Positions 11,306 to 54,770 of a stretch of 64,000 nucleotides of DNA are shown here, piece after piece. The stretch covers positions 62,001 through 126,000 of the forward strand of contig NW_027590242.1 in the NCBI RefSeq assembly GCF_964213995.1, in the 5' to 3' direction. Position 1 is the stretch's first letter; each line of letters opens with the position of its first letter. Both the position numbers and the translations under genes were made by a program. The notes under the pieces are model-generated. The model saw only the letters and a list, made by a program, of their open reading frames with translations, was not told the DNA's origin and ran no database searches. The DNA is from Mustelus asterias (lineage: Eukaryota).

Positions 11306-12064
11306 ATGGAGAAACGGTGGAAATGTGGGGACTGTGGGAAGGGATTCAATTACCCATCAAAGCTGGAAACTCATCGACGCAGTCACACTGGGGAGAGACC
11401 ATTCACCTGCTCTCAGTGTGGGAAGGGATTTAGTCAATTCTCCCTTCTGCTTACACACCAGCGAGTTCACACCGGGGAGAGGCCATTCGCCTGTTCTGAG
11501 TGTGGGAAGGGATTTAGTGATTTAGCCACACTGCGGAGACACCAGCGAATTCACAGTGGGGAGAGACCATTCACCTGCTCTGACTCTGGGAAGGGATTCA
11601 CTCAATCATCCCATCTGCTGGCACACCAGCGAGTTCACACTGGGGAGAAGCCATTCACCTGCCCTGTTTGTGGAAAAGTATTCAGCAATTCATCCACACT
11701 ACTGACACACCAGCGAGTTCACACTGGAGACAGACCGTTCAATTGCTCTGACTGTGGAAAGGGATTCATTCAGTCATCCCACTTGCTGACACACCAGCGG
11801 GTCCACACAGGGGAAAAGCCATTCACCTGCTCTGAGTGTGGGAGAGGATTCAGTGATTCATCAAACCTGCTGACACACCAGCGAGTTCACACTGAGAAGA
11901 AACCATTCAACTGCTCTGTGTGTGGAAAGGGATTCAAACATTCAGCAACCGTGATGAAACACCAGCGAGTTCACACCGGGGAGAGGCCGTTCACCTGCTC
12001 TATGTGTGGGAAGGGATTCACATTGTTATGCAACCTGCAGAGACACCAGCGAGTTCACAAGTGA
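11306..12064 (+). CDS. Tandem C2H2 zinc-finger protein, 9 fingers (finger 4 C>S degenerate)
   Basis: Kozak ACCATGG start (MEKRWKCGDC), HTGERPF linkers, ends HQRVHK*. Splice acceptor at ~10961. Confidence 0.85.
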   Translation: MEKRWKCGDCGKGFNYPSKLETHRRSHTGERPFTCSQCGKGFSQFSLLLTHQRVHTGERPFACSECGKGFSDLATLRRHQRIHSGERPFTCSDSGKGFTQSSHLLAHQRVHTGEKPFTCPVCGKVFSNSSTLLTHQRVHTGDRPFNCSDCGKGFIQSSHLLTHQRVHTGEKPFTCSECGRGFSDSSNLLTHQRVHTEKKPFNCSVCGKGFKHSATVMKHQRVHTGERPFTCSMCGKGFTLLCNLQRHQRVHK

Positions 12065-16739: not shown

Positions 16740-18861
16740 AACAGGCTGTTCTCTGGTAAGGATGTAAATGGAAAGTGGGAGGCCTTCAAAGGAGAAATTT
16801 TGAGAGTGCAGAGTTTATATGTTCCTGTCAGGATTAAAGGCAAAGTAAATAGGAATAAGGAACCTTGGTTCTCGAGGGAGATTGTAACACTGATTAAGAG
16901 GAAGAGAGAGTTGAATGAAATGTACAGGCAGCAGAGGAACAGATTAGATGCTTGAGGAGTATAAAAAGTGCAAGAAGCTACTTAAGAGGGAAATCAGGAG
17001 GGCTAAAAGAAGACTTGAGGTTGCTTTGGCAGACAGAGTGAAGGAAAATCCAAAGAGCTTCTATAGGTATGTTAGGAGCAAAAGGATAGTGAGGGATAAA
17101 ATTGGTCGTCTTGAAGATCAGAGTGGTCGGCTATGTATGGAACCGAAAGAAATGGGGGAGATATTAAATGGGTTTTCTGCATCCGTATTTACTAAGGAAA
17201 CGGGCATGGAGTCTACGGAAATAGGGCAAACAGGTAGGGAGGTCATGGAAACTTTACAGATTAAAGGGGAGGAGGTGCTTGCTGTCTTGAGGCAAATCAG
17301 AGTGGATAAATCCCCAGGACCGGACAGGGTATTCCCACAGACCCTGAGGGAAGCTAGTGTTGAACTTGCAGAGGCCCTGACAGACATATTTAAAATGTCA
17401 GTATTCACGGGGGAGGTGCCGGATGATTGGAGGGTGGCTCATGTGGTTCTGTTGTTTAAAAAAGGTTCCAAAAGAAATCTGGGAAATTATAGGCCAGTAA
17501 GTTTGACGTCGGTGGTGGGCAAGTTATTGGAAGGTGTGATAAGGATAGGATCTACAAATATTTGGATAGACAGGGACTTATTAGGGAGAGTCAACATGGC
17601 TTTGTGCGTGGTAGGTCATGTTTAACCAATCTATTAGAGTTTTTCGAGGAGGTTACCAGGAAAGTGGATGAAGGGAAGGCAGTGGATGTTGTTTACCTGG
17701 ATTTCAGCAAGGCCTTTGACAAGGTCCCTCATGGGAGGTTAGTTAGGAAGGTTCAGTCGCTAGGTATATATGGGGAGGTAGTAAATTGGATTAGACACTG
17801 GCTCAATGGAAGAAGCCAGAGAGTGGTTGTGGAGGATTGCTTCTCTGAGTGGAGGCCTGTGACTAGTGGTGTGCCGCAGGGATCGGTGTTGGGTCCATTG
17901 TTGTTTGTCATCTATATCAATGATCTGGATGATAATGTGGTAAATTGGATCAGCAAATTTGGAGGTGTAGTGGACAGTGAGGAAGGTTTTCAAAGCTTGC
18001 AGAGGGATTTGGACCAACTAGAAAAATGGGCTGAAAAATGGCAAATGGAATTTAACGCAGACAAGTGTGAGATATTGCACTTTGGAAGGACAAACCAAAG
18101 AAGAACGTACAGGGTAAATGGTAGGACTCTGAAGAGTGCAGTTGAACAGAGGGATCTGGGAATACAGGTACAGAATTCCCTCAAAGTGACGTCACAGGTG
18201 GATAGGGTCATAAAGAGTGCCTTTGGTACATTGGCCTTTATAAATCGGAATATTGAGTAGAAAAGTTGGAGTGTTATGGTAAGGTTATATAAGGCATTGG
18301 TGAGGCCGAATTTAGAGTATTGTGTACAGTTTTGGTCACCTCGTTACAGGAAGGATGTAAATAAGGTTGAAAGAGTGCAGAGAAGGTTCACAAGGATGTT
18401 GCCGGGACTTGAGAAGCTGAGTTACAGAGAGAGATTGAATAGGTTGGGACTTTATTCCCTGGAGCGTAGAAGATTGAGGGGAGATTTGATAGAGGTGTAT
18501 AAGATTTTGATGGGTATAGATAGAGTGAATGCAAGCAGACTTTTTCCACTGAGGCGAGGGGAGAAAAAAACCAGATGGCATGGGTTAAGGGTGAAAGGAG
18601 AAAAGTTTAAAGGGAATATTAGGGGGGGCTTCTTCACGCAGAGAGTGGTGGGAGTGTGGAATGAGCTGCCGGATAAAGTGGTAAATGCGGGGTCACTTTT
18701 AACATTTAAGAAAAACTTGGACGGGTTCATGGATGAGAGGGGTGTGGAGGGATATGGTCCAAGTGCAGGTCAGTGGGACTAGGCATAAAATGGTTCGGCA
18801 CAGACAAGAAGGGCCAAAAGGCCTGTTTCTGAGCTGTAATTTTCTATGGTTCTATGGTTCT
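16740..18861 (+). mobile_element. Younger 5'-truncated CR1-type LINE nested in the 3' UTR of the older copy
   Basis: ORF2 pieces at 16948-17625, 17562-18260 and 18276-18782 (YLDFSKAFD, GVPQGSVLGP). An in-frame deletion removes ADDTKI (WISKF-GGVV). (ctatggtt)n tail; caaca on both sides. Confidence 0.9.
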
Positions 18862-19250: not shown

Positions 19251-20417
19251 TCACTGGTGTTTCAGCAGTGTTGATGATATTCTAAACCTCCTTGAACAGT
19301 GAGAGCAGCTGAACGGCCTCTCCCCGGTGTGAATGTGCTCGGGGATCATCAGTTCCTGAGAGCTTCTGAAGCCGGCCTCTCGGGCAGAGCATTTAAAGGG
19401 GCTCTCCTTGGAGTGAGTGGCTTTGTGTCTCAGCAGGCTGGATGAATGAGTGAATTGCTTCCCACACACAGAGCAGGGGAATGGTCTCTCCCCGGTGTGA
19501 ACACGCTGGTGTATCCGCAGGTTGGATGATGCTTTAAATCTCTTTGTGCAGTGAGAGCAGCTGAACGGTCTCTCCTCAGTGTGAATGCGCTGGTGGGACA
19601 CCAGGTCCTGAGAGCTTTTGAATCCGCTCCCACAGTCAGAGCATTTAAACGGTCTCTCATTGGTGTGAGTGAGATTGTGTTTCAGCAGGCTGGATAACTG
19701 AGTGAATCCCTTCCCACACACAGAGCAGGTGAATGGCCTTTCCCCAGTGTGAACTCGCTGGTGTATCCACAGGTTGGATGATGTTCTAAACCTCTTTGAG
19801 CAGTGAGAGCAGCTGAACGGTCTCTCCTCAGTGTGAATGCGCTGGTGGGACACCAGTTCTCCAGAGCTTTTGAATCCGCTCCCACAGTCAGAGCATTTAA
19901 AGGGTCTCTCATTGGTATGAGTGACTCGGTGTGTCTTCAGGGTGGATGACTGAGTGAATCCCTTCCCACACACAGAGCAGGTGAACGGTCTCTCCCCGGT
20001 GTGAACTCGCTGGTGTATCCGCAGGTTGGATGAAGTTCTAAATTTCTTTGTGCAGTGAGAGCAGCTGAACGGTCTCTCCTCACTGTGAGTGCGCTGGTGG
20101 GACACCAGTTCCCCAGAGCGTTTGAAACCACTCCCACAGTCAGAGCATTTAAATGGTCTCTCATTGGTGTGAGTGAGATTGTGTTTCTGCAGGCTGGATA
20201 ACTGACTGAATCCCTTCCCACACACAGAGCAGGTGAATGGCCTCTCCCCAGTGGGAACTCCCTGGTGTGTTTGTAAATGGGATAACTGACTGAATCCCTT
20301 CCCACACACAGAGCAGGTGAATGGCCTCTCCCCAGTGTGACTGCGTTGATGAATTTCCAGAAGGGATGGGAACATGAATCTCTTCCCACAGTCACTACAT
20401 TTCCACGGTTTCTCCAT
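19251..20417 (-). CDS. Tandem C2H2 zinc-finger protein (~13-14 fingers) ending at a premature CGA>TGA stop; decayed fingers continue to ~18998
   Basis: 388-aa ORF starting [10 protein letters not shown] with a 3-finger (252-bp) higher-order repeat. Ends HQ* where the consensus is HQRVH. Confidence 0.8.
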
Positions 20418-21720
20418 GGTGCGGGTGTCCTTGTGACTCTCCAGGTTAAAAAATCAGTTAAATCTCACACAGAACACGGGTACAGTCTCTCCCCGCTGTG
20501 AATGCTGCGATGTATTTTCAGGCTGTGTAACTGGTTAAAGCTCTTTCCACACTCAGTGCACTGGAACACTCTCACTCGGGTGTGTGTATCTCAGTGCATT
20601 TCTCGTCACAGCGATGTTTACAATCTTTTGAAGCCAAGAGGCCAAACAAACATTTCTCCTGCTAGCTTCAAAGGCCGATGATATTCAGGTCTCAAGAAGT
20701 CGAGTCACTCTGTCAGATCTAGATGTGATGTTGGAGATTTCTGTCTGATTTCTCCTTGTCTAATATCCTGTGAGTCAATTTAGAAAAAAAAAAAAATCGC
20801 AATTCAGAATATGATCGAAATTCAAATCTACATTTCTAGTTTCTATGGAGCATTCATTAAAGACACAGTCATGGAGCATTAAACTTGCCGAGCAGAGCCT
20901 CTCGTATCAGCACACAGGCAGCTGCTTTGTGAGACTGCCAGCAGTACGGACAAGTCAGAGATAAGGGTGTCCTCAGAAGTGGGATTCATTGTGAAAGCTC
21001 AGGGACGGTTGATAAGATGCAGCAATTCTATGATTCTAATGAACATTCTTTCCTCTCTCATTCCGCAAAAGCCATGAATCTCCATCCCACACACTCTCCC
21101 TCCATTCTCACTCTGCTGTATCTAATATTCACCCTCCCAATTCTCCTGAAGGTGCTGATTGAGGCTGATTGACAGATCCATGCTCACTGCTTCCTGTCCA
21201 GCACAGAAATCAGAACAAATAGGAGCTGCAGTCAGCATTCGGCCCATCGAGTCTGCTCTACCATTCATTCAGATTATTGGTTGATCTACCTCTGCATTAT
21301 TTTCCCCACACTGTCCCCCATATCCATCGATATCTTCAATATCCAGAAACCTATCAATCCCTCTCTTGAAAATTCTTGATGACTGAGGCTCTGTAGTCCT
21401 CTGGGGTAGAGAATCCAAAACATCACCACGTCCTTGAGTGAAGAAATCCTTCCTCATCTGAGTTTTCTCTCCATTTTCCAGCCTGGTCCCAATAATTATT
21501 GACTCCCTTGTCATTCAAAAACTGTCTAACATCCTTGAATATATTCAATCCCTCCACTGGTCCCTATGGAAGAGAAATCTGGATACTAACAATTCTCTGA
21601 GGGAAGAGATTGTTGGAAATATATAATATAGCTGCAGTCCAAAATTACACAGTCAGATATAATACGTGTATTTTGTTACAGAGCTATAAATAACATATCT
21701 AATCTGTACCATATAACAAC

Positions 21721-26085: not shown

Positions 26086-26769
26086 CGCCACTGAAGGGAA
26101 AGGAAGTGAGCCCAGTCTGTATATTTCAGACATTTTTGGTCCAGTCATATAGACATATATCTGTCTGGCAGCCTGCATGGAGATTTCCAGCTCTCTGTGT
26201 CCAGGGCAGGAAGCAGTGAGCATGGATCTGTCAATCAGCCTCAATCAGCACCTTCAGGAGAATTGGGAGGGTGAATATTAGATACAGCAGAGTGAGAATG
26301 GAGGGAGAGTGTGTGGGATGGAGATTCACAGCTTTTGGGGAATGAGAGAGAAAGAATGTTCCACAGAAACTAGAATTGTCTGTTCTGACATTGATGACTT
26401 TTGCAAACTCATTTTGCAGGATATTGAAAGCGGAATCACAGGCAACAATCTCAACCGTCACGTCTAGATCTGACAGAGTCAAGTTCCTTGGGATCTGAAT
26501 ATCATTGGCCTTTGAATCTAGAAGGAGAAATTATTGTCCAATCTGTCGATTTGAATAGTTTTCAAATGTATGTGTGACTGGAAAAGCACCAACACACTGC
26601 CACACTCAAGTGAGAGTGTTCCAGTGCACTGACGAAAGGGTTTAAATAGTTACACCGCCTGAATAAATATCACATCATTCACAGCAGGGAGAGACTGCAC
26701 TCGTGTTCAGTGTGTGGACAAGGCTTTAACTGATTGTCCAAACAAGACAGAGGCAAGGACACCTGCACC

Positions 26770-27349
26770 ATGGAGAAACCATGGAAATGTGGGGACTGTG
26801 GGAAGAGATACAGAGCCCCATCTCTGCTGGATGCTCATCGGCGCAGCCACACTGGGGAGAGGCCATTCATCTGCTCTCAGTGTGGGAAGGGATTCACTCT
26901 GTCAATCCAGCCTGCAAAGACACCAGCGAGTTCACACTGGGGAGAGGCCGTTCACCTGCTCTCAGTGTGGGAAGGGATTCACTCGGTTATCTACTCTGCA
27001 GACACACCAGCGCATTCACACGGGGGAGAGGCCATTCATCTGCTCTCAGTGTGGGAAGTCATCCAACCTACAGAGACACCAGCGAGTTCACACTGGGGAG
27101 AGGCCATTCACCTGCTCTCAGTGTGGGAAGCGATTCACTGAGTCATCCAACCTGCAGAGACACCAACGAGTTCACACTGGGGAGAAGCCATCCATCTGCT
27201 CTGTGTGTGGGGTGGGATTTACTGAGTCTTCCAACCTGCGGAGGCACCAGCGAGTTCACACTGGGGAGAGACCATTCACCTGCTCTCAGTGTGGGAAGGG
27301 ATTCAGAGTTTCATTCTTGCTGCTGAGACAGCAGCAAGTTCACGCGTGA
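26770..27349 (+). pseudogene. C2H2 zinc-finger pseudogene (~7 fingers, +1 frameshift at ~26903, deletion in finger 4)
   Basis: [20 protein letters not shown] in one frame continues as [17 protein letters not shown] in another. Finger 1 is nearly identical to that of the 5103 gene. Confidence 0.85.
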
Positions 27350-34892: not shown

Positions 34893-35651
34893 TCACTTGT
34901 GAACTCGCTGGTGTGTCTGCAGGTGGGATGACTGAGTGAACCCGTTCGCACACACGGTGCAGGTGAATGGCCTCTCCCTAGTGTGAACTCGCTGGTGTCT
35001 CTGCAGATTGGTTAACTGAGTGAATCCCTTGCCACAGGCAGAGCAAGTGAATTGTTTCTCCCCAGTGTGAACTCGCTGGTGTACCCGCAGATAGGATGAC
35101 ATTCTAAATCTCTTTGAGCAGTGAGAGCAACTGAACGGTCTCTCCTCAGTGTGAATGCGCTGGTGGGACATCAGAACTTGAGAGCTTTTGAAGTCGCTCC
35201 CACATTCAGAGCATTTATAGGGTCTCTCATTGGAGTGAGTGACTTTGTGTCTGCGCATGCTGGATAACCAAGTGAATCCTTTCCCACACACAGGACAGTT
35301 GAATGGCCTCTCCCCGGAATGTACTCGCTGGTGTATCCGCAGGCTGGATAAGTCAGTGAATCCCTTCCCACACACAGGACAGGTAAATGGTCTCTCCGCA
35401 GTGTGAATTTGCTGGTGTGTCTGCAGATGACATAACTGAGTAAATCCAGTACCACAATCAGAACATGTGAATGGTCTCTTCCCTGTGTGAATTCGTTGGT
35501 GTGTTTGCAGGTTGGATGAATCATAGAATCCCTTCCCACACACAGAGCAGGTGAACGGCCGCTCCCCAGTGTGACTGCGTCGATGAATTTCCAGCTCAGA
35601 TGGGAACCTGAATCCCTTCCCACAGTCCCCACATTTCCACGGTTTCTCCAT
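34893..35651 (-). CDS. Tandem C2H2 zinc-finger protein, 9 intact fingers
   Basis: ACCATGG start [14 protein letters not shown]...HQRVHK*. Acceptor at ~36012, 5' module at 36124-36250, promoter at 36480-36760. Confidence 0.9.
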   Translation of the reverse strand: MEKPWKCGDCGKGFRFPSELEIHRRSHTGERPFTCSVCGKGFYDSSNLQTHQRIHTGKRPFTCSDCGTGFTQLCHLQTHQQIHTAERPFTCPVCGKGFTDLSSLRIHQRVHSGERPFNCPVCGKGFTWLSSMRRHKVTHSNERPYKCSECGSDFKSSQVLMSHQRIHTEERPFSCSHCSKRFRMSSYLRVHQRVHTGEKQFTCSACGKGFTQLTNLQRHQRVHTRERPFTCTVCANGFTQSSHLQTHQRVHK

Positions 35652-36479
35652 GGTGCAGGTGTCCTTGTGACGCTCCAGGTTAAACAATCAGTCAAATCTC
35701 ACACAGAACACAGGTACAGTCTCTCCCGCTGTGAATGCTGCAATGTATTTTCAGACTGTGTCACTGGTTAAAGCTCTTTCCACAGTCAGTGCACTGGAAC
35801 ACTCTCACTCGGGTGTGTGCGTGAGACTTGGTAAATTCTCAGTCACGCTGATGTTTAAAATCTCCAGAAGCAAAAAGAACAGAGAAATATTTCTCCTTCT
35901 AGGTACAAAGGCTGATGATGTTCAGGACATGATGAATTGAATGACTCTGTCAGATATTGATGTGACATTTGCTTTGAGATTACTGTCTGTAAATCCTCAC
36001 CTTCTGATATTCTGTAAAAGGAATTTATTAAATTCATCACTGTCAGTACAGGTTAGAAATTCAGAACAGACAGTTCTAGTTTCTATGGAACATTCTTTCC
36101 TTCCTCATTCTCCAAAAGCTGTAAATCTCCATCCCACACACTCTTCCTCCATTCTCACTCCGCTGTATCTAATATTCACCCTCCCAATTCTCCTGAAGGT
36201 GCTGATTGAGGCTGATTGACAGATCCACGCTCACTGCTTCCTGTCCTGGACACAGAGGGCTGGAAATCTCCATGCAGGCGGCCAGACAGATATATGTCTA
36301 CATTACTGGAGTAAAAATGTGTGGAATGTACAGACTGGATTCACTTCATTCCCTCCAGTTGCTGCAAGTCCCCAATTTTCCCCAGAATGAGAAAATAAAT
36401 TGAAAGGGGGAGAAAAGAAAGTGTTTTACTCACAGATATTAGGGAGAGCAGGAAGATTTTGTCTGACTGCATCTCCATG

Positions 36480-37750: not shown

Positions 37751-39002
37751 CCTGTGTTTTGAGAAATCATATTAAAATCTGGAACTCAGATGGGGATATG
37801 GATTGGTGTTAATTGGGAAGGTCTGGATCAATGCATTACTCCAGAGAACCTTGGAATCAGATTTACAGAATGGATCCCTGTAATAGCAGCAATTCCATTG
37901 CTATATGTTGGTCAGACTGAGGAAAGTATTTAAACTGGACACCATAGGTGTGTTAAAGGATAACGTACTCATGGAATTTATGAACTATCTGAAATAATAT
38001 TGAGAGCAAAGAAATCAATCTGGAAAATTGTAGTCACTTCACGTTGTTCCAGGAGAAGTGGGATTAGGTTGTGTAGATGTCTGGTTTTACACAGCACACA
38101 GTCAGCCTGTGGTTTCACCCTGGATGAAGAATCTCTGAATTGTACCATTCAAATCACTCAATGGGTTTATCAGGGGCCAGAATGTCTGCTCAGCAAGAGG
38201 AAGGTTGGTGTGAAACCAATGAGAAGTAACACAGACACTCACAGACACCCTCACACACATACAGACTCTCAGATGCCTCAAAATATCTCCTGTCACCTTA
38301 TTGTTCTTAGTTTTTTTGAAATAAATCCTGAATGAGTTATAAAATCACACACAGATATTTGTTGAGCTTCCCCTGAAAGACATCGATACTGTTCATTTCA
38401 CTCCCTGTGGTCATGATTTCCATATTCTCACCACTCTTTGGGTGGAGAAATTTATCTTGGATTTCCGATTGGGTTTCTTGGCGACTGTCTTGTATTGATG
38501 GTCTCCAGTTTTGCCTTTCTCCAAAAGAAGAAACATTATTTCAAAACCTTTTATAATTTTGAAGCCCTCTATTAGGTTACTCCTCAGCCTTAATTTTTCA
38601 AGAAAGCGTGAGCGTGTCAATCCTTTCCTGATGGATAACCAAACACACAGTTTAAAAATCATTTATGGGATGTGGACATCGCGAGCTTGGCCAGCATTTA
38701 TTGCTAACCTCAGATTGACCTTGAGAAGGTGGTGGTGAGCTGCTTTCTACATTTCTGGTATCATCATTAAAAATCATCTCTGTACCCTTCTCCAGTGCCG
38801 AGATATCTTTTTTATAATACGGTGACCAGGATGGCATGCAGTGGTCGGTAAGATTCTTGATCAGGGAGTCACAGGTTATCCAAAAGTGGTTTGAGCTTAT
38901 CCATGGTTTTAAATCAGAATAGAACATAGAACATAGAACAGTACAGCACAGAACAGGCCCTTCAGCCCACGATGTTGTGCCGAGCTTTATCTGAAACCAA
39001 GA

Positions 39003-41906
39003 TCAAGCTATCCCACTCCCTATCATCCTGGTGTGCTCCATGTGCCTATCCAATAACCACTTAAATGTTCCTAAAGTGTCTAACTCCACTATCACTGCAG
39101 GCAGTCCATTCCACACCCCAACCACTCTCTGCGTAAAGAACCTACCTCTGATATCCGTCCTGTATCTCCCACCACGAACCCTATAGTTATGCCCCCTTGT
39201 AATAGCTCCATCCACCCGAGGAAATAGTCTTTGAACGTTCACTCTATCTATCCCCTTCATCATTTTATACACCTCTATTAAGTCTCCCCTCAGCCTCCTC
39301 CGCTCCAGAGAGAACAGCCCTAGCTCCCTCAACCTTTCCTCATATGACCTACCCTCCAAACCAGGCAGCATCCTGGTAAATCTCCTCTGCACTCTTTCCA
39401 GCGCTTCCACATCCTTCTTATAGTGAGGTGACCAGAACTGCACACAATATTCCAAATGTGGTCTCACCAAGGTCCTGTACAGTTGCAGCATAACCCCACG
39501 GCTCTTAAACTCCAACCCCCTGTTAATAAAAGCTAACACACTATAGGCCTTCTTCACAGCTCTATCCACTTGACTGGCAACCTTTAGAGATCTGTGGATA
39601 TGGACCCCAAGATCTCTCTGTTCCTCCACAGTCTTCAGAACCCTACCTTTGACCCTGTAATCCACATTTAAATTTGTCCTACCAAAATGAATCACCTCAC
39701 ATTTATCAGGGTTAAACTCCATTTGCCATTTTTCAGCCCAGCTTTGCATCCTATCTATGTCTCTTTGCAGCCTACAACAGCCCTCCACCTCATCCACTAC
39801 TCCACCAATCTTGGTGTCATCAGCAAATTTACTGATCCACCCTTCAGCCCCCTCCTCTAAGTCATTAATAAAAATCACAAAGAGCAGAGGACCAAGCACT
39901 GATCCCTGCGGCACACCGCTAGCAACCTGCCTCCAATCCGAAAATTTTCCATCGAACACCACCCTCTGTCTTCGGTCAGACAGCCAGTTACCTATCCAAT
40001 CGGCCAACTTTCCCTCTATCCCACACCTCCTCACTTTCATCATAAGCCGACCATGGGGGACCTTATCAAACGCCTTACTAAAATTCATGTATATGACATC
40101 AACTGCCCTACCTTCATCAACACACTTAGTTACCTCCTCAAAAAATTCTATCAAATTTGTGAGGCACGACTTGCCCTTCACGAATCCGTGCTGACTATCT
40201 CGGATTAATCCGCATCTTTCTAAATGGTCGTAAATCCCATCCCTAAGGACCCTTTCCATCAATTTACCAACCACCGAAGTAAGACTAACCGGTCTATAAT
40301 TACCAGGGTCATTTCTATTCCCTTTCTTAAACAGAGGAACAACATTCGCCATTCTCCAGTCCTCTGGCACCATCCCCGTGGACAGCGAGGACCCAAAGAT
40401 CAACGCCAAAGGCTCTGCAATCTCATCCCTTGCCTCCCACAGAATCCTAGGATACATTTCATCAGGCCCAGGGGACTTATCGACCTTCAGTTTATTCAAA
40501 ACTGCCAAGACATCCTCCCTCCGAACATCTATTTCCTCCAGCCTATTAGCCTGTAACACCTTCTCTTCCTCAAAAACATGGCCCCTCTCCTTGGTGAACA
40601 CTGAAGAAAAGTATTCATTCATCACCTCGCCTATCTCTACTGACTCCATACACAAGTTCCCACTACTGTCCTTGACCGGCCCTAACCTCACCCTGGTCAT
40701 TCTTTTATTCCTCACATAAGAGTAAAAAGCCTTGGGGTTTTCCTTGATCCGACCCGCCAAGGACTTCTCATGTCCCCTCCTAGCTCTCTTAAGCCCCTTT
40801 TTCAGCTCATTCCTTGCTAACTTGTAACCCTCAATCGAGCCATCTGAACCTTGTTTCCTCATCCCTACATAAGCTTCCCTCTTCCTTTTCACAAGACATT
40901 CCACCTCTTTTGTGAACCATGGTTCCCTCACTCGGCCATTTCCTCCCTGCCTGACAGGAACATACCTATCAAGGACATCCAGTATTTGTTCCTTGAAAAA
41001 GTTCCACTTTTCATTAGTTCCTTTCTCTGACAGTTTCTGTTCCCAACTTATGCCCCCTAATTCTTGCCTAATCGCATCATAATTACCCCTCCCCCAATTG
41101 TAAACCTTGCCCTGCCGTACGGCCCTATCCCTCTCCATTGCAATAACAAAAGACACCGAATTGTGGTCACTATCTCCAAATTGCTCTCCCACAACCAAAC
41201 CTAACACTTGGCCCAGTTCATTTCCCAGTACCAAATCCAATGTGGCCTCACCTCTAGTCGGCCCATCCACATATTGTGTCAGGAAACCCTCCCGCACACA
41301 CTGCACAAAAACTGCCCCATCCAAACTATTTGACCTACAAAGGTTCCAATCAATATTTGGAAAGTTAAAGTCCCCCATGACAACTACCCTGTGACCCCCA
41401 CACATATCCATAATCTGCTTAGCAATTTCTTCCTCCACATCTCTATTACTATTTGGGGGCCTATAGTAAACTCCTAGCAACGTGACCGCTCCTTTCCTAT
41501 TTCTAACTTCAGCCCATATTACCTCAGTGTGCAGATCCCCCACGAAGTGCCTTTCCGCAGCCGTTAAACTATCCTTGATTAACAATGCCACTCCTCCACC
41601 TCTTTTACCAGCTTCCCTACACTTAGTGAAACATCTATACCCCGGAACGTCCAACAACCATTCCTGTCCTTGTTCTACCCACGTCTCCGTAATGGCCACA
41701 ACATCGTAGTCCCAAGTACCAATCCACGCCCCAAGTTCATCTACCTTGTTCCGGATGCTCCTTGCATTGAAGTAGACACACTTCAACCCACCTTCCTGTC
41801 TACCAGTACCCACCCTTGACCCTGATACCTTCCCCAATGCCTCACCACCCTCACTGACTTCTGGACTACAACTCCCTTTCCCACTCCCCTGACAAATTAG
41901 TTTAAA
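39003..41906 (-). CDS. CR1 ORF2: APE endonuclease plus reverse transcriptase (no AUG upstream of the endonuclease)
   Basis: NARSI, AITETW, GDFN and SDHN endonuclease motifs; QHGF, YMNFSKAFD, GVPQGSVLGP and FADD RT motifs. The frame is open from 42017, where the ORF-track 'M' is a TTG codon. Confidence 0.95.
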   Translation of the reverse strand, partial: FKLICQGSGKGSCSPEVSEGGEALGKVSGSRVGTGRQEGGLKCVYFNARSIRNKVDELGAWIGTWDYDVVAITETWVEQGQEWLLDVPGYRCFTKCREAGKRGGGVALLIKDSLTAAERHFVGDLHTEVIWAEVRNRKGAVTLLGVYYRPPNSNRDVEEEIAKQIMDMCGGHRVVVMGDFNFPNIDWNLCRSNSLDGAVFVQCVREGFLTQYVDGPTRGEATLDLVLGNELGQVLGLVVGEQFGDSDHNSVSFVIAMERDRAVRQGKVYNWGRGNYDAIRQELGGISWEQKLSEKGTNEKWNFFKEQILDVLDRYVPVRQGGNGRVREPWFTKEVECLVKRKREAYVGMRKQGSDGSIEGYKLARNELKKGLKRARRGHEKSLAGRIKENPKAFYSYVRNKRMTRVRLGPVKDSSGNLCMESVEIGEVMNEYFSSVFTKERGHVFEEEKVLQANRLEEIDVRREDVLAVLNKLKVDKSPGPDEMYPRILWEARDEIAEPLALIFGSSLSTGMVPEDWRMANVVPLFKKGNRNDPGNYRPVSLTSVVGKLMERVLRDGIYDHLERCGLIRDSQHGFVKGKSCLTNLIEFFEEVTKCVDEGRAVDVIYMNFSKAFDKVPHGRLMMKVRRCGIEGKLADWIGNWLSDRRQRVVFDGKFSDWRQVASGVPQGSVLGPLLFVIFINDLEEGAEGWISKFADDTKIGGVVDEVEGCCRLQRDIDRMQSWAEKWQMEFNPDKCEVIHFGRTNLNVDYRVKGRVLKTVEEQRDLGVHIHRSLKVASQVDRAVKKAYSVLAFINRGLEFKSRGVMLQLYRTLVRPHLEYCVQFWSPHYKKDVEALERVQRRFTRMLPGLEGRSYEERLRELGLFSLERRRLRGDLIEVYKMMKGIDRVNVQRLFPRVDGAITRGHNYRVRGGRYRTDIRGRFFTQRVVGVWNGLPAVIVELDTLGTFKWLLDRHMEHTRMIGSGIA

Positions 41907-42823
41907 CCCCCCTGAAGAGCCGTAACAAATTTCCCTCCGAGGATATTGGTGCCCCTCTGGTTCAGGTGCACCCCGTCCTGTTTGTACAGGTCCCACCTTC
42001 CCCAGAACGTGTTCCAATTATCCACGTATCTGAAAGCCTCCCTCCTACACCATCCCTGCAACCACATATTTAACTGCACTCTCTCCCTGTTCCTCAACTC
42101 GCTATCACGTGGTACCGGCAACGTACCAGAGATGACCACATGTTTCGTCTTGGCTCTCAGCTTCCAGCCCAGCTCCAGAAATTCCTGCTTTAAATCCCCG
42201 TCCCTTCTCTTACCTATGTCATTGGTACCAATGTGCACCACGACTTGTGACTGTTTCCCCTCCCCCTTCAGAATCTGGAAAACACGGTCTGAGACATCAC
42301 GGACCTTGGCATCCGGTAGGCAACATACCATCCGTGAGTCTCTTTTGCTGCCACAGAACCTCGTATCTATCCCTCTAACTAACGAGTCCCCAATAACTAT
42401 CGCCCTCCCGCTCTCCCCCTTTCCCTCCCGAGCCACAGAGACGGACACAGTGCTGGAGATCCTCTCACTGCGGCTCCCCACTGGTATGTCATCCCCCTCA
42501 ACCGTATCCAAAGCGGAATACTTGTTGCTAAGGGGAACGACCACCGGGGATCCCTGCACGGACTGCTTCCTCCCAGCCCCTCTCACCGTCACCCATCTGT
42601 TTTCAATCCTCGGAGTAACTGTATTCCTAAAGCTTGTGTCTATGGCCATCTCTGCGTCCCTGATGATCCTAAGTTCATCCAACTCCAGCTCCAGTTCCCT
42701 AACACGGTTTTGGAGGAGCTGCAGATGGGTGCACTTCCCACAGGTGTAATCAGTAGGGACACTGTCGTCGTCCCTCACCTCAAACATCGTGCAAGAGGAA
42801 CATTGCACTGCCTGCACACCCAT
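41897..42823 (-). CDS. CR1 ORF1: zinc finger/leucine zipper plus SGNH esterase domain
   Basis: CxxC...CxxC, a heptad LQNRVRELELEL, and IGDSLV, HIGTNDI, DGVHLN esterase blocks. Confidence 0.92.
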   Translation of the reverse strand: MGVQAVQCSSCTMFEVRDDDSVPTDYTCGKCTHLQLLQNRVRELELELDELRIIRDAEMAIDTSFRNTVTPRIENRWVTVRGAGRKQSVQGSPVVVPLSNKYSALDTVEGDDIPVGSRSERISSTVSVSVAREGKGESGRAIVIGDSLVRGIDTRFCGSKRDSRMVCCLPDAKVRDVSDRVFQILKGEGKQSQVVVHIGTNDIGKRRDGDLKQEFLELGWKLRAKTKHVVISGTLPVPRDSELRNRERVQLNMWLQGWCRREAFRYVDNWNTFWGRWDLYKQDGVHLNQRGTNILGGKFVTALQGGLN

Positions 42824-43809
42824 CCCCTCTAGATACCTTGCCAGTACCAGGTAGAAAGTGCAAAAATGAATTCAACTCACCCCTACTCGCCCTTTCAGCC
42901 TAAGCCCTGTGAGCCAAAGTCTTATAGCTCACACTCTGCTTCCCACACACTTCACTGCCCGCTCCCGACGCTACCCGCTGTATACTGCAGCCTACCTTTT
43001 ATACTTCACGCGCTTAAAAAACCCTTCCCAGACTCCTTTGCTGCCCACTTCTAGTTTTCACTTTAAACTTGAAAAACTGCTGTTAAAGTAAAGGCCAAAA
43101 AAATACACACACTAGCTGACTAATTAAATAAATAAACAATTCAATTAATCCAATTAATCTCTCACCAGCACTGCTGCCTTCAATCACCCCTCTCAGCTTG
43201 CTCCAGTGGATCAATGAGGGGGAACCTCCCAGGTAACTGACTTTTAAAGTTAAAATAAAAACCCTTCCCAGACTCCTTTGCTGCCCACTTCTAGTTTTCA
43301 CTTTAAACTTGAAAAACTGCTGTTAAAGTAAAGGCCAAAAAAATACACACACTAGCTGACTAATTAAATAAATAAACAATTCAATTAATCTCTCACCAGC
43401 ACTGCTGCCTTCAATCACCCCTCTCAGCTTGCTCCAGTGGATCAATGAGAATATTAAGAAGCAACAATTGAGAAATTATGCATTGTAAACGGGGGGAAAA
43501 AGACAGAAGACCCATGGCAGGTGACTAGCTGGGGTCTCAGCACTGATCCTGCATTACCCCAATAATCACTGCCTGCCAGTTGGAAAAAGACCTGTTTAAT
43601 CTTACTCTATTTCCTGTCTGCCAACAAGTTTTCAATCTCAATACATTCGCCCCAATCCCATGTGCATTAATTTTTATGAAGAAGTTGCTGTGTTGGTGGA
43701 CGAGGGGAATCGGGTTCACATTTTCTATCTCAGGGCATAATCATCAACAACTTGTATTTACACAGAGTGTTGTGGGACTGGAGGAGGTTACTGAGATACT
43801 GAGGAACTT

Positions 43810-44223: not shown

Positions 44224-46251
44224 TCACACATGAAGTCGTCTATGTTTCAGCAGGCTGTAATACTGAGTAAATCCCTTCCCACACATGGAGCAGTTGAAAG
44301 GTTTTGCCCCAGTGTGAACTCGCTGGTGTCTCTGCAGGCGGGATGGATCAGTGAATCCCTTCCCACACAGGGAGCAGGTGAACGGTTTTGCCCCAGTGTG
44401 AACTCGCTGGTGTCTCTGCAGGCGGGATGGATCAGTGAATCCCTTCCCACACAGGGAGCAGGTGAACGGTTTTGCCCCAGTGTGAACTCGCTGGTGTCTC
44501 TGCAGGCGGGATGGATCAGTGAATCCCTTCCCACACAGGGAGCAGGTGAATGGTTCTGTCGCAGTGTGAACTCGCTGGTGTTTCAGCATATAGGATGAAT
44601 CAGTGAATCCCTTCCCACACACAGAGCAGGTGAACGACTTCTCCCCGGTGTGAATGCGTTGGTGTCTCAGCAGGCCAGACGACTGAGCGAATCCCTTTCC
44701 ACACACAGAGCACAGGAACGGCCTCTCCCCGGTGTGAACTCGCTGGTGTCTCTGCAGGTTGGATACCTGAGTGAATCCCTTCCCACACACAGAGCAGGTG
44801 AACGGCTTCTCCCCAGTGTGAACTCGCTGATGTCTCTGCAGGTGGGATGGATCAGTGAATCCCTTCCCACACTGAGAGCAGGTGAACGGTTCTGTCGCAG
44901 TGTGAACTCGCTGGTGTCTCTGCAGGCTGGATACCTGAGTGTATCCCTTCCCACACACAGAGCAGGTGAACGGCTTCTCCCCGGTGTGAACTCGCTGGTG
45001 TGTCTGCAGGCTGGATGAACCAATGAATCCCTTCCCACACACAGAGCAGGTGAACGGCCTGTCCCCTGTGTGAATGTATTGGTGTCTCAGCAGGTCAGAC
45101 GACTGAGTGAATCTCTTGCCACAAATGGAGCAAGAGAATGGCTTCTCCCCGGTGTGAACAGGCCGATGTTTCAGCAGGTGTTGTAAAGAAGCAAATGCTT
45201 TCCCGCAGACAGGGCAAACGTAAGGCCTCTCCCCTGTGTGAACACGCTCGTGTATCACAAGCTGGGATGAATGAGGAAACATCTTCCCACACACGGAGCA
45301 GAGGAATGGCCTCTCCCCAGTGTGAACTCGCCGGTGCCTCAGAAGATAGTGAGACCGAGTGAATTCCTTCCCACACACCGAGCAGGTGAACAGCTTCTCC
45401 CCAGTGTGAACTCGCTGGTGTGTCAGCTGGTCAGTTGATTGAACTTCTTCCTTTCTACACATTGAGGAGGTGAATGGTTTCCCTCCAGTGTGAATACTCT
45501 TGTGTGTCAAAAGGTGTGAAAATCGAGTGAATCTCTTCCCACACAGGGAGCAGAGGAAAGGCCTCTCCCCAGTGTGAACTCGCTTGTGTGTCAGAAGATG
45601 AGATGAATGAGCGAATCTCTTCCCACAAACAGAACAGGGGTACGGCCTCTCCCCGGTGTGAGTGTCCTGGTGTCTCAGCAGACTAATCCTTCTTTTGAAG
45701 GTCTTCTCACATTTAAAGCATTTAAAATGTCTCTTCTGAGAATGAACCAGTTGGTGAACGGTGCAGTGGGAGGACTGAGTGAATCTCTTCCCACACTGGG
45801 AGCAGCTGAATGGCCTGTCCTTGGTATGAACTGGTTGATGCTCAGTGAGATGCACTGAGTCGCTGAACGACTCCCCGCAGTGGGAGCAGCTGAACGGTCT
45901 CTCGTGTGTGTGAAGGAGCTGGTGCTCTGCAAGGCGGGAGGACTGGCTGAACCTCTTCCCGCAGTGGGAGCAGCTGAACGGTCTCTCGTCAGTGTGAAGG
46001 AGCTGGTGTTGGGCCTGTTCCTCAGAGGTTTCAATGCTTTCCCCAGAGTCAGAGCTTTGAAGAGGCTTCTGAATAATGTGATCGAGTTGGTGAGCCAGCA
46101 GGTTGGACGAACACATGAATTTCTTCCCACACACGGAGCAGGTGAATGAACTCTCACTATTGCGAGCTCGCTGTCGTGTCAGCATGTTTTCCAGCTGTAT
46201 CAATCCCTTCCCACAGGAGGAGCAAGGAAACAGATTCTCACCAGTTTCCAA
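44224..46251 (-). CDS. Long tandem C2H2 zinc-finger protein (~24 finger units, ~21 intact); start codon uncertain (first ATG at 46182)
   Basis: 675-codon open frame of finger repeats. Splice acceptor at ~46369. Confidence 0.88.
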
Positions 46252-46395
46252 CTGAGATGGTCAATTAAATCCCTTCAGATGCACAAATTTTCAGATCCCG
46301 ATGAACCGATTGACTCTGTCTGACGTGAGATTCGATCATCCAGACTGCAGATCCTTCTCTTCAATTTCCTGTAAAATAAGTTTACAAAGAATTAC

Positions 46396-53766: not shown

Positions 53767-54770
53767 TCATTTGTGAACTCGCTGGTGTGTCACAAGGTGT
53801 GATGACTGAGTGAATCCCTTCCCACACTCAGAGCAGGTGAATGGCCTCTCCCCAGTGTGAACTCGCTGGTGTTTCAGGAGTTGGGAAGACTGAGAGAATC
53901 TTTTCCCACAAACAGAGCAGGTGAATAGCCTCTCCTTAGTATGAACTCGTTGGTGCACCAGACTGTCTGATCACTGAATGAATCCCTTAGCACACGTGGA
54001 GCAGGTGAATGGCCTCTCTCCAATGTGAACTCGCTGGTGCAACAGAAGCTGGTATGACTGAATGAATCCCTTCACACTCTCAGAGCAGATGAATGGTCTG
54101 TTCCCAGTGTGAACCTGCTGGTGTGTCACAAGGTGGGATGTCTGAGTGAATCCCTTCCCACACACACAGCAAATAAATGGCCTCTCCTCAGTGTGAACTC
54201 GCTGGTGTGGTTGAGTGAATCCCTTTTCACACACACAGCAAGTGAATGGCCTCACCCCAATGTGATGTCGCTGGTGAATTAGCAAGTCAAATGACTGAAC
54301 AAATCTCTTCCCACTCACACACAAGATGAACGGTTTCTCCCCAGTGTGAAGTCGCTGGTGTATTTGCAGATACTTCTTGCTTTTAAAGCTCTTCTCACAG
54401 TCAGAACATTTAAAAAGTCTCTGATCACTGTGTACATGTTGATGTTCAGTGACCTGGGATGACTGAGTGAATTTGTTGCCACACACAGGCCTGGTGAATG
54501 CGCTCTCCTCAGTGTGAACTTGCTCATGAGCCAGGAGGTCACATGAGTCAGTAAATTCCTTCCCACACATGGAGCATCTGAACAGCCTCTCCTGGGTATG
54601 AACTGGCTGGTGTGTCGACAGACTGGATAACTGAGTAAATCCATCTCCACACATGGAGAAGGTGAAAGGTCCCTCCCCAGTGTGACTGCATTGATCAGGT
54701 CCCAGTTCAAAAGGGAAAATTAATCCCATCCCACAGTCACCATATGTCCACGCTTTCTCCGCGATTCAAT
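53767..54770 (-). pseudogene. C2H2 zinc-finger pseudogene (~11 fingers, internal TGA at 53971, degenerate start region)
   Basis: ORFs 53971-54729 and 53767-53958 are in the same frame, separated by one stop. Several fingers lack ligand residues. Confidence 0.8.

Follow-up and report, generated by a model that had tools for sequence, protein, structure and literature searches.

How does a retrotransposon express a polymerase gene that has no AUG codon near its beginning? The question is raised by a 64,000-nucleotide (nt) stretch of the Mustelus asterias genome (contig NW_027590242.1, positions 62,001 to 126,000; hereafter the window), which carries on its minus strand a long interspersed nuclear element (LINE) of the CR1 group. 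Of its two open reading frames (ORFs), ORF1 encodes an esterase-containing protein and ORF2 an endonuclease-reverse transcriptase, and an earlier note on this DNA had proposed that the two are fused by programmed −1 ribosomal frameshifting at a slippery heptamer, U_UUA_AAC. The proposal was found to be supported by sequence conservation of the heptamer, its phase, the adjoining stop codon, and the −1 placement of ORF2, and we consider it very probable that the CR1 LINE makes its endonuclease-reverse transcriptase in this way.

The ORF1-ORF2 junction and its conservation

In the window copy, ORF1 was found to end, as the earlier note had described, with TTTAAAC read as T TTA AAC and followed directly by TAA (Table 1), and a slip of −1 enters a frame that starts FKLIC and is stop-free down to position 39003. 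The first in-frame ATG of ORF2 was likewise confirmed at 41411, past the endonuclease motifs NARS (41780-41757) and ITETW (41693-41679); it lies 165 codons into the ORF2 frame and inside the endonuclease, so a start at this AUG would cost more than half of that domain. The G tract that had been put forward as a stimulator does begin after a 10-nt spacer, at 41889; its third GGG, in contrast, is not conserved among relatives, which retain only GGGGR-NN-GGG (hereafter the G-box). Bare TTTAAAC occurs 34 times in the window and is followed by a stop codon and a G-run only once.

The CR1 family in the window is young: a junction search of the genome gave 1165 first-look candidates, and all 40 that were scored had 100% identity over the 401-nt junction. 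Because near-identical copies (29 others, ~99%) are uninformative on selection, diverged families were sampled. The anchor was an esterase-end pattern that leaves out the heptamer, with 15,721 matches in the genome. From the first 30 pattern matches, 20 loci hand-picked for variety, and 35 from two protein searches, less 2 duplicates, a set of 83 loci was obtained, in which the junction position was set by ORF1 protein alignment alone. TTTAAAC was present at the predicted position in 70 of these 83 own-genome loci, and in 69 of the 74 where the match reached the last residue; most of the loci lacking it there were copies with nearby indels. Re-anchoring that allows one mismatch is circular and was kept out of the main count. 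The ORF1 stop codons of 82 anchored loci were TAG (44), TAA (32), TGA (3), or other (3).

Codon choice was compared in 19 representatives picked by the author, each standing for a family or subfamily. No variation was seen from −3 to +1, the three X bases were T in 18 and G in one, and T closed the codon preceding TTA in 18 of 18, whether that codon was for Gly, Thr, Ser, Asp, Cys, or Ala. TTA accounts for 29 of the 209 Leu codons in the rest of these ORF1s, and AAC for 29 of the 78 Asn codons. Judged by these counts, the heptamer is conserved beyond protein-coding need. The combination of heptamer, stop codon, and G-box was matched 22,090 times genome-wide versus 7 times for the reversed pattern, while the same cassette with an altered heptamer was matched 364 times (first base not T) and 572 times (last base not C). 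These genome-wide counts mirror copy number, and they imply that no sizeable family has a broken heptamer. Searching the genome with distant ORF1 proteins revealed no families beyond those already found.

More distant loci were examined in metagenomes (29 of 41 loci inspected) together with 2 loci from a prokaryote-genome scan. Of these 31, nine were CR1-like with a visible junction, 7 were cut off or deleted there, and 15 were other esterase loci. Eight of the nine CR1-like metagenome loci, which we take to be bird-type from their motifs, carry TTTAAAC, seven of them with TAG and one in decayed form; the ninth (L064) has G_GGA_AAC followed by TAG, and its endonuclease lies in −1 phase. Among the 15 non-CR1 esterase loci, the canonical heptamer was found in none of the 14 with a visible stop. 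Scans of viral contigs gave no relatives, and the scan of prokaryote genomes gave 3 esterases that were unrelated. The junction comparison that the earlier note had called for thus extends from shark families to bird-type CR1 loci, across which the heptamer, its phase, and the adjoining stop are kept.

The C-termini of ORF1 proteins were also compared. Close ORF1 homologues end in LN in 34 of 51 cases. Of 150 ORF1 cluster representatives, 97 have the esterase motif, and 75 of those end 18-34 residues beyond it; the terminal dipeptide of these 75 was LN in 40, GN in 9, and KN in 1, so that 50 fit XXY-YYZ, compared with 2-11 of 75 at internal offsets of the same proteins. Gln preceded GN in all 9 cases, as would be permitted by G_GGA_AAC, and the residue before LN can be encoded by a codon ending in T in 32 of 33 cases versus a background of 162 of 198 (p=0.011). 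Tail length ranges from 24 to 39 residues, and this variability indicates that the terminal motif tracks the stop codon rather than the fold. A group of esterases with a DGLHP motif (P0120, P0122, P0135, P0181, P0182, P0190, and P0192), which is presumably L2-type, was observed to have terminal residues that fit no heptamer. Going by these DGLHP ends, perhaps only the CR1 side carries the heptamer signal.

Reading frame of the linker and RNA-level alternatives

Between the heptamer and the endonuclease lies a linker, and its reading frame was examined in the own-genome loci. The endonuclease motif was in the −1 phase in 60 of the 68 loci with the motif (13 of 81 lacked it). Of 66 loci with linkers of 35-86 codons, 60 had no stop in the −1 frame and none was stop-free in the other frames; over 3,013 linker codons the −1 frame held 9 stops, versus 145 and 338 in the other two. 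By this measure the linker appears to be translated. Followed upstream from the heptamer, the −1 frame meets a stop after 1-5 codons in 12 of 16 representatives, 10 of which offer no near-cognate start, and this early closure confines entry into ORF2 to the heptamer or just after it. Diverged CR1 families have kept the heptamer and its phase, the stop, a −1 ORF2, an open linker, and, at +11 to +20, a G-box. Taken together, these features mark the junction as what appears to be a real recoding cassette, deeply conserved among CR1 LINEs of the esterase type.

The upstream stops bear directly on dual coding, in which a non-AUG codon within ORF1 would serve as the start of ORF2, and the heptamer bases would be fixed by accident through the joint constraints of Phe-Lys-Leu and Leu-Asn-stop. 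The two peptides together would indeed fix six of the seven bases, and in the window copy, at odds with the earlier note, the ORF2 frame is open for 37 codons upstream of the heptamer, with TTG, CTG, and GTG codons there. The stops found in most representatives, however, already largely refute such a start; moreover, (i) the residues of L064 differ in both frames while the slippery form is kept; and (ii) the last heptamer base stays C even though T would be silent in ORF1. We therefore regard dual coding as highly improbable.

Splicing would offer another route, with the heptamer and stop resembling a branch point, the next AG serving as acceptor, and ORF2 joined to an upstream exon. An AG is found at +10/+11 in 10 of 16 representatives, and the window family has a pyrimidine-rich CAG, located 14 nt upstream of where the heptamer ends. 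Yet the AG is missing in 5 of the 16, one of them an intact family of near-identical copies, and the putative branch A lies just 8 nt from the AG, without a pyrimidine tract, whereas branch points are usually spaced 18 nt or more from the acceptor. A single contig, from a sequencing run presumed to be RNA, spans 41174-42919 gap-free with no joint near the junction, which counts weakly against splicing. Overall, splicing has very little chance of being the explanation.

Slippage during transcription, in either the T/A or the G run, by which an added base would fuse the frames in the RNA itself, appears similarly implausible. G runs of 4-10 bases do adjoin the junction and vary in length among copies; however, they lie 3′ of the ORF1 stop, where an indel cannot fuse the frames, and T3-A3 is short for polymerase slippage. 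In addition, no junction indel was seen in contigs of four runs guessed to be RNA, contigs being assemblies that drop rare variants.

Proposed mechanism, the G-box, and reinitiation

In programmed −1 frameshifting, the P- and A-site tRNAs would slip one base back on the last two ORF1 codons, and slow termination at the adjoining stop together with the G-box would raise the slip rate. Plentiful ORF1 protein would then be accompanied by a smaller amount of an ORF1-ORF2 fusion, ~1,270 residues long. Both forms of the heptamer found here, U_UUA_AAC and G_GGA_AAC, are among the shiftiest on mammalian ribosomes (PMC5009743). The joint stimulation by stop and G-box is the weakest step of the proposal and may be compared with pea enation mosaic virus, in which a nearby stop strongly affects frameshifting (PMC5009743).

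Within the G-box, positions +11 to +15 hold G in 16-19 of the 19 representatives and positions +18 to +20 in 16-17 of them, and both Gly codons within it are mostly GGG, versus 36-39% GGG usage elsewhere. The region downstream of the heptamer contains 9-17% C (16 representatives). Eight of 16 representatives have a predicted G-quadruplex, mostly of two tiers, and the window copy has none. The G-box would not belong to a pseudoknot and would instead bind a protein or fold as a weak G-quadruplex. A long-range partner for the G-box 650 nt upstream (−17.8 kcal/mol) was set aside, having no comparison with shuffles or relatives. The arterivirus PRRSV (the virus of porcine reproductive and respiratory syndrome) has CCCANCUCC 11 nt 3′ of its shift site, bound by nsp1beta and PCBP (PMC5009743); the CR1 junction resembles it in having a short bipartite homopolymer motif at an equal distance from the shift site without RNA structure, and differs from it in that the motif is G-rich and its binder putative, so that the likeness is one of analogy alone. 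Natural stimulation of frameshifting by a G-quadruplex was described as not known in a 2016 review (PMC5009743), in view of which the G-box could represent a new class of frameshift stimulator.

Several observations weigh against frameshifting. The families compared share descent, and their conservation counts are not independent events. No conserved stem-loop was found downstream in 16 representatives (z −1.6 to +1.7) under a fold model that leaves out pseudoknots, nor was a conserved local pairing partner for the G-box found in these 16, and the classical stimulator, a stem-loop or pseudoknot 5-9 nt downstream, is not predicted at this junction. Twenty-five of the 75 ORF1 representatives end in dipeptides that fit no heptamer, and the nine proteins ending in QGN may be a single clade, with DNA known for L064 only. 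The linkers of 10 of 15 representatives, and those of 15 of 60 own copies, encode an in-frame Met, although such scattered Mets are at about the chance level, by our estimate, for a 45-codon stretch. Four of the nine metagenome CR1 loci (L066, L067, L069, and L071) have an in-frame ATG 2 nt past the stop, and in L064 an ATG precedes the heptamer by three codons. Furthermore, the studied two-ORF LINEs L1 and SART1 use reinitiation (PMC2881922).

These last points favor termination-reinitiation, in which ribosomes would restart just past the ORF1 stop at an AUG or any codon, aided by the G-box, and produce a separate ORF2 protein. L1 ORF2 accepts any sense codon in place of AUG (PMC1965478), and a restart near the stop would likewise keep the linker open. 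The fixed wobble bases of the heptamer and the T-to-G covariation are left unexplained by such a restart, however; at the position of the bird-type ATG the shark codon is mostly TGT, TGG, AGG, or CAG; and there is no conserved upstream UGGGA motif. An AUG overlapping or adjoining the ORF1 stop, as in SART1, is absent from the window family (30 of 30 copies) and present in 4 bird-type loci. This bears on two claims of the earlier note. The absence of a usable ORF2 AUG held for the family in the window, where none of the 30 near-identical copies has an in-frame AUG before codon 121, and turned out to be specific to that family. The in-frame AUG just past the ORF1 stop, which the earlier note had named as a finding that would speak against frameshifting, is missing from the window family and is present in the 4 of 9 metagenome loci listed above. 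The bird-type ATG, at one fixed position, may allow reinitiation as well, and reinitiation may run alongside frameshifting in those families. As the sole explanation of the junction, reinitiation is judged unlikely.

The frameshifting proposed for this junction has counterparts in several systems. It would share with the coronavirus IBV (infectious bronchitis virus; U_UUA_AAC) and with the gag-pol genes of retroviruses and long terminal repeat (LTR) elements the class of heptamer, a polymerase in the −1 frame, and an excess of structural protein (PMC5009743); it differs from them in its non-LTR host, in having no predicted stem-loop or pseudoknot, and in the stop placed directly past the heptamer. 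With L1 and SART1 it would share a low ORF2 output that depends on ORF1 translation (PMC2881922, PMC3894237), whereas reinitiation yields two separate proteins and the CR1 junction predicts a fusion. The earlier note had set −1 frameshifting, as typical of LTR elements and retroviruses, against the reinitiation or coupling of studied LINEs such as L1 and SART1. That contrast needs amending for the Dictyostelium non-LTR elements TRE5-A and TRE3-A, whose ORF2 is stated by a review to need a −1 frameshift (PMC5911963). The review's statement gives the principle a non-LTR precedent in a different lineage.

The mechanism itself is known; for the CR1 clade it is unreported in the literature reached, and a structure-free G-box is unusual. 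Turtle CR1 has reportedly been noted to have overlapping ORFs. Full-text literature searches, with the original CR1 papers and Repbase reports outside their reach, gave no paper on CR1 frameshifting among those listed. The word "frameshift" is absent from the main texts of PMC4120745 and PMC13343379, which do not address how ORF2 is translated, and "CR1" is absent from the searched part of the frameshifting review (PMC5009743). For LINE ORF2 initiation, stop-start coupling, reinitiation, and internal ribosome entry have been listed and the matter called an open question (PMC3894237).

If frameshifting is confirmed, (i) the enzyme would carry the ORF1 esterase covalently; (ii) a short signal would set the ORF1:ORF2 ratio; and (iii) annotations that start ORF2 at its first Met would remove half of the endonuclease. 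The cassette is only ~30 nt long and is thus directly testable. Most vertebrates have the CR1 group as their dominant retrotransposon (PMC13343379). A broader proposition, that this dominant LINE makes a gag-pol-like fusion without a pseudoknot from sharks to birds and beyond, driven by a G-tract protein on the G-box (or its own ORF1 protein) or by a G-quadruplex, would make the junction a natural, non-viral example of frameshifting with a protein or quadruplex as stimulator; it is offered tentatively and is judged less likely than not.

The element, its copies, and its surroundings

Table 1. Features of the CR1 LINE and its ORF1-ORF2 junction, in window coordinates.
Feature	Position	Strand	Remarks
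Full-length young CR1 LINE, ~4.5 kb	38917..43449	−	Copies match at ~99% up to 43449
5′ untranslated region (UTR)	42824..43449	−	Tandem unit ~231 bp, starts 43449 and 43218
ORF1, 308 residues	41897..42823	−	Two CxxC pairs, leucine-rich segment, SGNH/GDSL esterase; C-terminus Leu-Asn-stop
Slippery heptamer U_UUA_AAC, X_XXY_YYZ phase	41900..41906	−	
ORF1 stop TAA, immediately 3′ of heptamer	41897..41899	−	TAG or TGA in other families
G-box, candidate stimulator	41880..41889	−	+11 to +20 past heptamer
Linker, 42 codons in −1 frame, heptamer to endonuclease	41781..41906	−	35-86 codons in relatives
ORF2 frame, 967 residues counted from heptamer	39003..41906	−	APE endonuclease and reverse transcriptase
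3′ short tandem repeat tail in place of poly(A)	38917..38940	−	

The element is assigned to the canonical CR1 LINEs of the esterase type by its architecture and by motifs that we take to be those of CR1. It resembles canonical CR1 in its zinc-finger/leucine-zipper and SGNH esterase ORF1, its APE and reverse transcriptase ORF2, its length, and its short-repeat tail. The ORF1 esterase domain was detected as PF13472 (E=2.5e-11), with the CxxC pairs at residues 8 and 28, and ORF2, numbered from the heptamer, contains PF03372 at residues 45-248 (E=2.9e-22) and PF00078 at residues 529-768 (E=3.4e-31). The tandem unit of the 5′ UTR (43449-43017, minus strand) is present in one, two, or more units depending on the insertion, an arrangement reminiscent of the monomer promoters of rodent L1. 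Vertebrate CR1 LINEs with an esterase ORF1 are classed as type IVB, CR1 subgroup 7 (PMC4120745; also PMC13343379).

Named relatives of ORF1 in the protein database come from sharks and rays. One shark-type CR1 ORF1 (P0007) is filed there as Pseudomonas aeruginosa, a label that probably reflects assembly contamination. At 40085-40083 (minus strand), within a reverse transcriptase motif, the window copy encodes Asn, while four sequencing runs have the base for Asp, presumably the catalytic residue; the window copy may be defective in reverse transcription despite its open frames.

Several copies (L004, L005, L007, L009, L012, L016, L030, and others) have alignments that end inside ORF1 or the 5′ UTR, and L005 has an inverted segment beginning near window position 41250, which is consistent with 5′ truncation and inversion. 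Among other loci, L057 changes over to the endonuclease start of another CR1 soon after its own, and the endonuclease of L050 is shortened by an internal in-frame deletion. A second CR1 of a different family, 5′-truncated and with a broken ORF2, lies at ~16900-18750 (plus strand) of the window; ORF1 and endonuclease motifs were looked for in it and none were found. The LINE insertions are surrounded by a cluster of C2H2 zinc-finger exons at 11252-12064, 19251-20453, 26663-27349, 34893-35687, 44224-46260, and 53971-54765.

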